Sequence record: DRR723986_3145
Length of the DNA: 53,304 bases
Direction: 5' to 3' (one strand)
The position numbers and the translations under genes are program-made. The notes under the pieces are model-generated. The model did no database searches. It was not told the origin of the DNA and saw only the letters and a list, made by a program, of their open reading frames with translations. Positions 14,645 to 19,497 of this stretch are shown here, in pieces. Each line of letters opens with the position of its first letter. Position 1 is the stretch's first letter.

Positions 14645-16204
<1,560 letters not shown>

Positions 16205-16333
16205 CGCCCCGCACAGCATCGAGGGGCAGCCGGCCTCCGCCTCACACTGGCGAACACCACCCATAATGCACCATAATCGGACGTGACGGCCCACATCGGG
16301 CCGTTTACAAATTCCGAACAGGTGGATGCCACA

Positions 16334-16771
16334 ATGTCCCAACTACTGAAGATTGCGGTTCTTTCCCTCGCGTTTTCGCTGCCCGCACTGGCGGCCAGTG
16401 AAGCGGGGACCATCAAAACCAGCAGGGGCAGCGCCAGCATCGTGCGCGACGGCGCCACCCTGCCAGCCGCGGTGGGCGACACACTGCTGGTGAGCGATTC
16501 GGTGGTGACCGAGGCCGATGGCGTCGTCGGCATTACCTTGCGTGACAACACCCGCCTGACTGCAGGCCCCAATACCACCCTGGAACTGAACAAGTTCGCC
16601 TTTGATACCACCACCAACAAAGGCCAGGTAGACGCCTCGGTCAAACGCGGTTCGCTGTCGGTGATCTCCGGCAAGATTGCCAAGGCCAGTCCTGATGGCG
16701 TGCAGTTCCACACGCCGACCGTAACCCTGGGGGTCCGCGGGACCAAATTCATCGTGGCCGCAGGCAACTAG
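16334..16771 (+). CDS. Secreted FecR-domain protein (ends shortly after the GT motif)
   Basis: Signal peptide; VGDTL...DSVVT...GITLRDNTRLT.GPNT...TPTVTLGVRGTKF. Confidence 0.88.
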   Translation: MSQLLKIAVLSLAFSLPALAASEAGTIKTSRGSASIVRDGATLPAAVGDTLLVSDSVVTEADGVVGITLRDNTRLTAGPNTTLELNKFAFDTTTNKGQVDASVKRGSLSVISGKIAKASPDGVQFHTPTVTLGVRGTKFIVAAGN

Positions 16772-16782
16772 GGAGTACCAAC

Positions 16783-17397
16783 ATGTTTGAGCTTTTCCTG
16801 ATCCCGGTAACCATCATCGCCGTGGCCCTCCTGCAGCCCGAACCTCCGCCGCCGGAACCCCCCAAGGAGAAAATCGTCCTGTTGCCTGATGATGACGGTA
16901 ACGTGGGTGCGGTCGTGGTCACCACCAGTGCCGGGGAACAGACCCTGGACACCGCCTACGGGGCAGTACAGGTCAGCGAAAGTGGTGAGATCGCTCCGGT
17001 GGTGGAATCCGCCGAGTCGATCCGGGCCCAGTTCGGCGACGTGCTCGACGCAGCGCCGCCGGAGCCGGTGTCATTCGTGGTGTACTTCGTCTCGGGATCC
17101 AGCACCCAGCTCACCCCCGCATCGGAGCAGACGATTACCGACTTAGAGGCAGCTCTGGCGCTGCGGCCAGCGCCCGAGATACTGGTCATCGGGCATACCG
17201 ATACCGTCGGTGACGGGGACGATAACGACCGCCTGTCCCTGGCGCGCGCCACCCGGGTGCTCGACATGATTCGCCAGACCGGCGTTTCTGCTGCAAGCCT
17301 CGAGGCCAGCGGCCGCGGCGAGCGCGAACTGCTGGTACCGACAGAAGACCGGGTCGACGAACCGCGCAATCGCCGCGTCGAAATCAACATCCGCTGA
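16783..17397 (+). CDS. OmpA-like peptidoglycan-binding domain protein
   Basis: GHTDTVG...NDRLSLARA...GRGE...NRRVEI; GGAG RBS. Confidence 0.92.
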   Translation: MFELFLIPVTIIAVALLQPEPPPPEPPKEKIVLLPDDDGNVGAVVVTTSAGEQTLDTAYGAVQVSESGEIAPVVESAESIRAQFGDVLDAAPPEPVSFVVYFVSGSSTQLTPASEQTITDLEAALALRPAPEILVIGHTDTVGDGDDNDRLSLARATRVLDMIRQTGVSAASLEASGRGERELLVPTEDRVDEPRNRRVEINIR

Positions 17398-17424: not shown

Positions 17425-19497
17425 ATGAATTACATCCTTGGCCTGCTGCGCGGCATCTTCACCTACCGGAAAGGGCGCCCGGCAGCGGTCGTCATCCTGC
17501 TGTGGACCTGCACCCTGTCGGTGCTGTCGGAAGTCACCGTAGAGGGCGGCTTGCGGGAGTACTCCGGGGCCTTCACCCGCCCCTTTGTCAGTGCGCGCCA
17601 GCTTCTGTTCGACAGCTACCAGAAATACGACCCGCGCATTCCCCTCTCCCAGCCGGTCACCATCGTCGCCATCGACGAGGCCAGCCTGTCCGATATCGGC
17701 CAGTGGCCCTGGCCGCGCAACAAGCTCGCTGACCTGATCGCGGCCATCGGCGCTTACCAGCCGGCGGCCATCGGTCTCGATATGTACATGCCCGAACGCG
17801 ACCAGACCTCGCCGGATATCGTTGCCGAGAACCTGCCGGCCGATGCGGCGCCGGAACTGCTCGAGCGCTTGCGGTCGATGCCCAGCCATGAGGCGCTGTT
17901 CGCGGAAGCACTGTTTACCTATCCCACTGTGCTCGGCGCGGCGGGCTTCGATTTCGAGACCTACACCACCAGCGCGGGTCTGCGCACCGTGCCGCTGCAG
18001 GTCAACGGCAATGACCCGCTGCCATTCGTCCGCAAGTTCGACGCGGTGCTGGCCAGCCTGCCCGAGCTGCAGGCCGCAGCCTGGGGGCAGGCAGTGCTCA
18101 GCGTGGACCTGGACTTCGGCGTGGTACGCCGGATTCCCCTGGTGGTCGCGGTGGGTGACGAGCTGGTCTCCGGCCTGGCGATGGAAATGCTGCGGGTTGC
18201 CACTGGGTCGGAAGCGGTCATGGTGAACACCGGCAGCCGCGGGATCGAGAGTGTCGCCATCGCTGAGCTCGCCGTACCGACGCAGCCCGGTGGCGACATG
18301 TGGCTGCACTTCGCCGAAGCGCGTTCCACCGCGGGGCGCTACGTCTCCGCCGCCCGGGTCCTCTCTGGCGATGTCGACCCGGACCAGCTCAGCGGCAAAC
18401 TGGTGCTGCTCGGCCTGACCGGCTTCGGACTTAACGATATGCGAACCACCGCCCTCGGCGAACTGGTACCCGGCATCGAGATCCAGGCGCAGGTACTGGA
18501 GGCCATGTTTGACGGCAACTTCGTGGTCCGACCCTGGTGGATGAAATGGGTGGAGATCGGCGGCATCCTCGCGATCGGCCTGTTCCTGGTCTGGTTTATT
18601 CCCCGCACCGAATCACCGCTGGCCAAATTCCTGCAGACCGTACCCCGCGCCTATCTCTGGCTGACCCTGGGCGTGAACCTGGTGCTTGCCGGCATCGGCC
18701 TGCTGCTGTTCAGCAAACTCGGCTTGCTGTTTGACGCCGCCTCGGCCTTCCTCATATTTTCGGCGATCATCGGCAGCCTGGTTTCCAGTGCCCTGATTCA
18801 GATCGACCGTGTCGCCAGGGCCAGGGAAAGCCAGGAACAGGCCATGCGTGAAAACGCCAAACTGGTGGCCGGCGGCATGGCCGCGCGGTTTGCCATGGAT
18901 AACGAGGCGGCCAACGCCGGCCCGGCGGGCTACCCGGAGGACGAACTGACCCGCGCACTGGCGGAAGAGGCTGGCCGCTTACCCCAACTGCAGGCGCAAC
19001 TGGACGGCCACATGATCGAGTTGATCAGCCGCGCCGCCCTGCACCGCGATATGGGCATGGTACAGGTACCCCGAGAGTTACTGGCGAGCCCGGAGCCGCT
19101 GCCGGCAGAAGCCCGCAGCCAGTTGCGCCAGCATCCCGAGGTGGGCCGCCTGGCGCTGGCCTCGGTGCGGGAACTGCTGGAGCAGGAGCACAGTGGCATT
19201 CCCGAGCACCTGGAGCGTTACCTGGAAGTACTCCGCGACACGGTGGACAGCCACCACGAGCGCTGGGATGGCAATGGCTACCCGAAAGGGCTGGCGGGTG
19301 ACTCTATCCCCCTGGCAGGACGGATTGTTGCCATTGTGGACACCTACCAGAGCCTGGTCAGCGAGCGCCCCTACCGCCCCGCCCGCTCCCCGCAGGCGGC
19401 GCTGGAGATCATCGAGCAGGGAGCCGCCAGCCAGTTCGATCCCCAGCTGGTGCAGTGCTTCCTCCAGGTGATGGCAGCTCGCGGTCAGCCGACCTGA
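17425..19497 (+). CDS. CHASE2 membrane receptor with degenerate HD-GYP domain
   Basis: VAIDEASL..IGQWPWPR, DFGVVRRIPL, PGIEIQAQ, three further TMs, HHERWDGNGYP, RIVAIVD, RPY. Confidence 0.92.
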   Translation: MNYILGLLRGIFTYRKGRPAAVVILLWTCTLSVLSEVTVEGGLREYSGAFTRPFVSARQLLFDSYQKYDPRIPLSQPVTIVAIDEASLSDIGQWPWPRNKLADLIAAIGAYQPAAIGLDMYMPERDQTSPDIVAENLPADAAPELLERLRSMPSHEALFAEALFTYPTVLGAAGFDFETYTTSAGLRTVPLQVNGNDPLPFVRKFDAVLASLPELQAAAWGQAVLSVDLDFGVVRRIPLVVAVGDELVSGLAMEMLRVATGSEAVMVNTGSRGIESVAIAELAVPTQPGGDMWLHFAEARSTAGRYVSAARVLSGDVDPDQLSGKLVLLGLTGFGLNDMRTTALGELVPGIEIQAQVLEAMFDGNFVVRPWWMKWVEIGGILAIGLFLVWFIPRTESPLAKFLQTVPRAYLWLTLGVNLVLAGIGLLLFSKLGLLFDAASAFLIFSAIIGSLVSSALIQIDRVARARESQEQAMRENAKLVAGGMAARFAMDNEAANAGPAGYPEDELTRALAEEAGRLPQLQAQLDGHMIELISRAALHRDMGMVQVPRELLASPEPLPAEARSQLRQHPEVGRLALASVRELLEQEHSGIPEHLERYLEVLRDTVDSHHERWDGNGYPKGLAGDSIPLAGRIVAIVDTYQSLVSERPYRPARSPQAALEIIEQGAASQFDPQLVQCFLQVMAARGQPT

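Follow-up and report, generated by a model that had tools for sequence, protein, structure and literature searches.

Can one protein fold be encoded in two neighbouring genes and completed when their products meet? The question is raised by a stretch of DNA of 53,304 nucleotides (nt) from sequence record DRR723986_3145, referred to here as the window, in which three head-to-tail genes on the + strand, downstream of a phosphoenolpyruvate (PEP) carboxykinase gene, encode a FecR-like, an OmpA-like and a CHASE2/HD-GYP-type protein. A preliminary description, made from the sequence alone, had proposed that the FecR domain is split between the first two genes and completed in trans by the OmpA-like protein. 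Comparison with relatives largely bears out this interpretation, without proving it. As far as sequence relationships can tell, these two genes specify consecutive portions of a fold that elsewhere is made as a single chain, and we consider it fairly probable, from these relationships and from a structure model of a homologous fusion, that they supply complementary parts of one FecR/PupR-type solenoid, assembling as a split-fold heterodimer.

The two genes and their single-chain relatives

The features on which the argument turns are given below in window coordinates, with protein lengths in amino acids (aa).

16334-16771, + strand: short periplasmic FecR-core gene, 145 aa plus stop (PF04773)
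16739-16744, + strand: codons of G136-T137, the family-invariant Gly-Thr, after which comes the last strand, KFIVAA
16772-16775, + strand: GGAG, ribosome-binding site 7 nt ahead of the second gene's ATG, read from the sequence
16783-17397, + strand: gene of the OmpA-like peptidoglycan-binding protein, 204 aa plus stop (PF00691)
16864-17067, + strand: 68-aa module, residues 28-95 of the OmpA-like protein, counterpart of the post-Gly-Thr segment in single-chain FecR proteins
17098-17373, + strand: OmpA-like domain, residues 106-197, with GHTD...NDRLSLARATRV (PF00691)

The FecR-like open reading frame (ORF) begins with ATG at 16334 (a longer option would begin with GTG at 16283) and closes 8 residues past G136-T137, with the C-terminus ...TLGVRGTKFIVAAGN followed by TAG at 16769-16771. 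Its residues 1-21 resemble a Sec signal peptide (...LPALA before and ASEAG after the presumed cut); the FecR core follows at once, and no Pfam family besides FecR was detected in the ORF. The Pfam profile PF04773 matches residues 55-142 with 40.3 bits (cut-off 24; E-value (E) 4.5e-10) over positions 1-81 of 97, the last strands (82-97) being left uncovered, which agrees with the early end noticed in the preliminary description. Among 15 matches to this profile in three genomes, 12 extend to at least position 92 and three end at 78-84, two of these three being orthologues of the window gene. A search for short relatives gave 682 matches at E≤1e-3 among proteins of 79-254 aa, with source names that indicate Halieaceae and relatives; in 119 of the 120 that were listed (129-249 aa) FecR is the sole domain. 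Because the relatives are conserved and the usual PF04773 matches extend further along the profile, the short FecR proteins are, by sequence, a conserved family that is genuinely truncated relative to the usual domain. R135, G136 and T137 are invariant both in a 63-sequence alignment and in the 29 fusions described below. A MAFFT alignment puts the window G136-T137 in the same column as G181-T182 of Escherichia coli FecR, between which that protein is reported to cleave itself (PMC8144685; reports cited by such numbers are used here in excerpt), in keeping with the preliminary description, which takes this Gly-Thr as the self-cleavage site of FecR-type proteins. In the same alignment the first strand of the module is placed under the FecR strand TQLDVQ.

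The second gene lies in another frame, since (16783-16334) mod 3 = 2, and the features attributed to it beforehand are all present, namely its own GGAG, a hydrophobic N-terminus (MFELFLIPVTIIAVALL) and, ahead of the OmpA domain, the segment 16873-16974 (residues 31-64, IVLLPDDDGNVGAVVVTTSAGEQTLDTAYGAVQV). The order along the protein is a hydrophobic N-terminal anchor or signal, a Pro-rich spacer, the 68-aa module and the OmpA-like domain. PF00691 matches residues 106-197 with 57 bits (cut-off 27.2), and the GHTD...NDRLSLARATRV residues are what we take to be the peptidoglycan-binding motif; the best sequence match among solved structures is YfiB (E 1.7e-10). Proteins with a single module before OmpA are about 200 aa long and mostly lipoproteins, and most members of the family alignment carry a lipobox Cys, which the window protein lacks at that place.

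The module follows the FecR core in eight single-chain proteins (L020, L021, L029, L032, L034, L037, L038 and L047), where the core match runs up to positions 140-147 of a 150-position profile of short FecR proteins and 3-24 residues separate its end from the module, as in the example ...IGIRGTHVVGEVSANSATIILMEPEEPGAKTGIDVSNEFGSVSIDEPGYGTEI. The module scores 31.5 bits in L037, 24.8 in L020, 19.3 in L032, 16.7 in L021, 15.7 in L047 and 14.4 in L038; in L029 and L034 it scores about 7 bits, which is weak alone, though the reading by eye agrees. The corresponding E-values were 9e-9 to 2e-3 in the larger local ORF searches, with 5e-7 and 2e-4 in another, and as they refer to small databases they are to be taken together with the bit scores. 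In the reverse direction, a 209-position profile of the eight proteins was run against the 217 window ORFs of at least 100 aa and matched just two of them, in order and without overlap: the FecR-like ORF over positions 8-143 (E 1.5e-32) and the OmpA-like ORF, through residues 31-75, over positions 151-196 (E 6.8e-5). The N-terminal segment of the OmpA-like protein thus does align with the strands behind the Gly-Thr, as had been predicted from the window alone.

A search for natural fusions, which the preliminary description had suggested, was also productive. Twenty-nine clusters among the 38 longer relatives are fusions of FecR, linker, module and OmpA, 355-378 aa in length, forming at least two clades with 35-84% identity to the first sequence. 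All follow the order signal peptide, FecR core, ...RGTxFxxE, linker, VLLPxPDGKVG..., OmpA. The linker between the FecR part and the module is about 40-50 aa long and partly conserved; it shows the pattern W.D..G....SG.G (alignment columns about 160-215) and, in one clade, a Cys pair, and could represent a small separate element. The fused forms are known here from the protein-cluster database only: a search centred on G002 and covering 400 genomes sampled from the same class gave no fused gene, the only matches being ones that read through a stop. How could such fusions arise? In three loci (L001:3977-5065, L002:3917-4969 and L025:901-2013, the last from G218) the FecR and OmpA genes share a frame with one stop codon between them, so that loss of this stop could create a fusion, the former export signal becoming the linker. 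The frames differ in the window and in the other loci.

Two further observations concern the junction. One protein of 249 aa (P0089), from a metagenome contig of 1335 bases, has the FecR strand ...RGTHFIIEA joined straight to the second half of the module (AGEQTLD...); it lacks the export signal and the first hairpin, and may have arisen by deletion or as a chimera of the assembly. Fusion of the window products through programmed frameshifting or readthrough was also considered. By eye, no slippery heptamer precedes the stop, and the frame of one gene with respect to the other is not constant from locus to locus; this was rejected as a conserved mechanism.

The two genes also occur together. 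At E≤1e-15 the short-FecR profile matches in 50 of the 400 genomes, and among the 30 loci listed the truncated type is found in eight genomes. Full-length matches to the module-OmpA protein occur in exactly those eight of the 400 genomes, at nine places, all other matches covering the OmpA domain only. When 12 further loci from other genera were assessed together with the window, the FecR and module-OmpA genes were adjacent in 12 of the 13; in the remaining one (G152) they are separated by 4.2 kb that include a CHASE2 cyclase gene and further sequence. Many OmpA genes of the further loci have a lipoprotein signal of their own. G117 holds a second pair (L090:3881-4997), in which an intact module-OmpA lipoprotein gene stands beside a broken FecR gene, whose profile match runs over two frames (positions 24-71, 76-129 and 130-146) and implies two frameshifts; no CHASE2 gene was found near this pair in the 10 kb examined.

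Structure models and the 68-aa module

In PupR, residues 110-238 of the CJM subdomain form one twisted beta-solenoid with two seven-stranded sheets, and the subdomains degrade fast once separated (PMC7186176). Does the window encode such a solenoid? Models were compared by VIA-align with 48,161 solved chains. One fusion, P0122, was modelled by AlphaFold on the 29-sequence alignment (predicted local distance difference test score (pLDDT) 78.8, predicted template modelling score (pTM) 0.71); this protein is about 55% identical to the window in the FecR part and about 43% in the module. The top match of the model is the periplasmic domain of PupR (6ovm_R; Z 14.1, root-mean-square deviation 2.8 Å, 138 residues aligned), in which model residues 53-245 align with chain residues 111-251. 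As residues 53-144 number only 92, at least 46 of the 138 aligned residues come from the module region. The next FecR-type match is 4m0h_A (Z 12.9, 140 aligned, model residues 21-241), and the OmpA-like domain matches solved OmpA-like domains at Z 13-14. Foldseek with this fusion model against the PDB gave a list filled by OmpA-like domains, so that the PupR match comes from VIA-align only.

The window FecR protein modelled as a monomer has a pLDDT of 87.7. Its core, residues 23-126, is confident (10-residue block means 89-97), and residues 127-145, with the invariant motif, are strandless at pLDDT 65-70. Alone it aligns with 6ovm_R over 85 residues (Z 5.8) and with 4m0h_A over 86 (Z 5.5); its best structural match is the anchoring domain 5ix9 (Z 10.7), and 5ix9 was also the sole match when solved structures were searched by sequence with the short FecR protein, as a single sequence and as a profile, PupR and FecR not being reached. 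By this comparison, then, the window FecR protein is not a complete one-chain CJM solenoid. Since the PupR fit goes from 85 to 138 aligned residues with the module, the models suggest that the module supplies the portion of the PupR fold that is absent from the short FecR protein.

What is this module? Residues 28-95 were searched against 1.84 billion representative proteins, 148 of which match at E≤1e-3. They show it in four contexts: single before OmpA, within FecR-OmpA fusions, in tandem copies, and directly behind a FecR core. Two to five tandem copies are present in 16 proteins; of ten of these scanned against Pfam, seven have OmpA and nine have thrombospondin type 3 (TSP3) repeats. In such large proteins (P0159, P0161-P0166, P0168, P0171, P0173 and others) the arrays are interleaved with the TSP3 repeats, often with an outer-membrane barrel-like N-terminus and an OmpA C-terminus. 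The module looks like a candidate new periplasmic repeat domain. In the fusion model it is a unit of about 68 aa, with five strands and a helix, and thus more than a few missing strands. The idea of a split domain is supported in one respect, the module occupying the C-terminal part of the PupR fold in the fusion model, and has to be amended in another, as the module is a unit in itself and also occurs in tandem without FecR.

The CHASE2 neighbour and related systems

Two further genes complete the locus.

14645-16204, upstream of the FecR gene: PEP carboxykinase gene (pckA)
17425-19497, + strand: gene of a 690-aa membrane protein, a CHASE2 sensor ending in an HD-GYP-type domain (Pfam)

In Parahalioglobus pacificus, too, a PEP carboxykinase gene (L001:2173-3801) immediately precedes the FecR gene, an instance of ordinary conserved synteny. 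The 690-aa protein scores above the cut-offs for CHASE2 (PF05226; 161.5 bits, residues 51-386) and HD_5 (PF13487; 97.4 bits, residues 499-675). Its HD-GYP-type domain reads LHRDMG (19039-19056; residues 539-544) where the usual motif is HDxGK, which makes the catalytic state uncertain; the HHERWDGNGYP motif (19252-19284) is intact, and the phosphodiesterase may be atypical or inactive. A CHASE2 gene is adjacent or nearby in nine of the 12 assessable loci, L003 being too short to judge. The output domain changes from locus to locus as the FecR and module-OmpA genes stay constant: it is HD-GYP in the window, a SpoIIE phosphatase in three loci (L002, L052 and L053) and an adenylate/guanylate cyclase in L057, and L001, L004 and L005 have no recognised domain there. 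FecR-domain proteins also cluster with CHASE2 sensors in Burkholderia (PMC5192318), and a FecR-CHASE2 cluster has been noted in Campylobacterota (PMC9239204). The CHASE2 sensor is hence a likely signalling partner of the FecR/module-OmpA pair.

How might the three proteins work together? By sequence comparison, the first gene provides a soluble periplasmic protein comprising the first two thirds of the fold, through the strand after the Gly-Thr, and the second a membrane- or lipid-anchored, peptidoglycan-binding OmpA-like protein, whose 68-aa module is the remaining third. In the model that we favour, the exposed C-terminal strand of the FecR protein (T137-A142) would pair in the periplasm with strand I31-P35, the first of the module; both sheets of the solenoid would thereby be completed and the FecR part held at the cell wall. 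Once assembled, the unit might provide the neighbouring sensor with an additional input through its periplasmic CHASE2 domain, with cyclic di-GMP (c-di-GMP) turnover as the readout in the window, because the output there is of HD-GYP type. The working logic would be that of YfiB/YfiR/YfiN, in which an OmpA-like wall-bound protein captures the periplasmic regulator of a membrane enzyme.

The resemblance to YfiBNR (TpbB) would be one of logic only. Both systems encode together an OmpA-like wall-binding protein, a small periplasmic protein and an inner-membrane c-di-GMP enzyme; in the window, however, the periplasmic protein is FecR-like and not YfiR, and the enzyme combines CHASE2 with HD-GYP instead of being a PAS-GGDEF cyclase. 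The OmpA-like protein scores 50 bits with the NCBIfam model of YfiB (NF053585), below the equivalog cut-off of 128, and is therefore not YfiB.

Another related system is the periplasmic CJM subdomain of cell-surface-signalling sigma regulators, namely PupR (6OVM/6OVK), FecR and FoxR. The window has a Pfam FecR domain with its Gly-Thr in the E. coli FecR column, and the FecR core plus module of the fused homologue superposes on PupR 111-251. Unlike these regulators, the window divides the fold between two genes and attaches its second part to an OmpA-like domain. The FecR protein belongs to the Pfam FecR family by score, but lacks the cytoplasmic anti-sigma domain, the transmembrane helix and the STN subdomain of FecR/PupR-type sigma regulators and so is not one of them. 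By Pfam the C-terminal STN subdomain, which binds the TonB-dependent transducer, is in neither window ORF; the module is followed by the OmpA-like domain.

FoxR cleaves itself between G191 and T192, and the resulting fragments interact and act jointly (PMC11637429). In self-cleaved FoxR and FecR, where the cut is made by an N-O acyl shift at the Gly-Thr, a FecR-type fold thus exists as two associated polypeptides, and the window break falls within 8 residues of the same Gly-Thr. The difference is that the window break is genetic and comes after the post-Gly-Thr strand, needing no chemistry. Given this proximity to the self-cutting site, gene fission would do genetically what autoproteolysis does. 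By analogy, cleavage between G136 and T137 of the window protein, if any, would free only a 9-residue peptide; self-cleavage here is speculative, and so is the association/dissociation switch that the preliminary description had envisaged.

Two other systems share parts of this arrangement. The 'BiofilmReg' operon of Burkholderia, which has been tied to biofilm regulation, places a LysM+FecR protein beside a CHASE2 histidine kinase and so presents the same triad of wall-binding module, FecR and CHASE2 (PMC5192318). Its wall-binding module, however, is a LysM, fused N-terminally within one protein, its output is a histidine kinase with a response regulator, and a split of the FecR fold is not described in the excerpt of that report. 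The other is the retention module of an RTX adhesin (MpIBP region I, 5IX9), from the ice-binding adhesin of Marinomonas. It matches residues 21-117 of the FecR-core model, with a profile E of 7.7e-5 and 74 of 76 residues aligned, and the NCBIfam model 'retention_LapA' (NF033682) reaches E 2.9e-4 on the core, below its cut-off. The retention module forms the N-terminal part of a giant secreted adhesin, a context that the window does not offer, and the match covers neither the Gly-Thr strand nor the 68-aa module. The resemblance concerns the N-terminal part of the FecR core (residues about 22-117; window 16397-16684).

Alternative explanations and meaning of the locus

How else could the locus be explained? 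The two products might be self-sufficient proteins of the same pathway without a shared fold, the short FecR protein being a complete smaller variant and the module an autonomous spacer or stacking domain; operon and fusion would then exist because both serve one CHASE2 sensor or one process of the envelope, and they would bind otherwise or not at all. We judge this unlikely, though it keeps a real chance, since a number of observations weigh against a split fold or favour this reading. No FecR domain was found in the ten tandem-module proteins scanned against Pfam (E≤0.01), and because arrays of two to five copies occur in large OmpA/TSP3 proteins without FecR, the module probably folds without the FecR core. 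Searched alone, the module matches no Pfam family at E≤10, FecR included, and in the fusions the Pfam FecR match ends at profile positions 81-86 and does not run into it. The strand series 'LLPDxxG..G.V.V...G..L', given in the preliminary description as what generally follows RGTxFxV, is indeed seen in the eight single chains, but with the classical anti-sigma FecR proteins L007, L008 and L010 the module profile gave no significant match (E≥0.4), so that module-like similarity appears confined to a subset of FecR proteins. The FecR core 23-126 is modelled confidently by itself and matches the free-standing 5ix9. The fusions retain a linker of some 40-50 aa and not a tight turn, poorly modelled in P0122 (pLDDT 48-61), where the junction residues 121-150 reach only 67-69. 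The structural argument is moreover indirect, as it draws on a single AlphaFold model of a homologous fusion; 4m0h, released in 2013, was therefore probably in the AlphaFold training data, and the packing in the model may partly reflect memory of that fold. Other observations speak against two self-sufficient proteins: the two ORFs map in order and without overlap onto single chains in which 3-24 residues lie between the parts, the most conserved motif of the short FecR protein, TLGVRGTxF, sits in a tail that is unstructured in the monomer model, the PupR-fold fit grows from 85 to 138 residues when the module is included, and the two genes co-occur strictly, in eight of eight genomes.

Alternatively, the FecR/module-OmpA pair could form a wall-anchored unit independent of CHASE2 signalling, devoted to envelope architecture or to another partner, with CHASE2 as a frequent bystander. 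It is true that CHASE2 is absent within about 6 kb in three of the 12 loci (G218, G265 and G307) as well as at the second pair of G117, so that coupling to CHASE2 may not be obligatory, and that the FecR core is similar to a domain by which a giant adhesin is anchored or retained. Nevertheless, CHASE2 lies near in nine of 12 loci with changing outputs, a pattern typical of a conserved sensory module, and clustering of FecR with CHASE2 has been reported independently in other lineages (PMC5192318, PMC9239204); a bystander role is improbable on these grounds. Still more remote, to the point of being hardly credible, is that a formerly fused or contiguous gene was broken in this assembly by a frameshift or stop, as an artefact or in a recent pseudogenisation. 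Natural fusions do exist, the genes share a frame with a single stop between them in three loci (L001, L002 and G218), and one paralogous FecR gene of G117 is broken by two frameshifts; but the split form is kept in 13 loci of several genera, where frames and overlaps vary, a GGAG and an export signal (a lipobox in most relatives) belong to the second gene itself, and 682 proteins of 79-254 aa match the short FecR protein, 119 of the 120 listed being FecR-only.

Why would a divided FecR fold matter? In the full-text collection searched, none of the excerpts retrieved described a FecR fold that two genes share or that an OmpA-family protein completes. The triad of wall-binding module, FecR and CHASE2 already has a described relative in Burkholderia (PMC5192318). 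Periplasmic domains of FecR type have a central place in cell-surface signalling, and the way in which their two self-cleaved chains cooperate is debated. A natural two-gene version would let the assembly of the solenoid be studied with each part expressed, deleted or titrated separately. The locus also defines a 68-aa unannotated periplasmic module that is used as well in tandem arrays of large OmpA-family proteins, and it offers a candidate for a concrete protein partner of CHASE2 sensors. More tentatively, CHASE2 receptors may sense a protein instead of a small molecule, namely a FecR-type solenoid assembled in the periplasm from a free and a wall-anchored subunit, whose state of assembly would report the geometry or integrity of the envelope. 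The locus would then be the gene-fission counterpart of the FoxR/FecR split, and a regulated two-chain solenoid might be a general design of FecR-type signalling.

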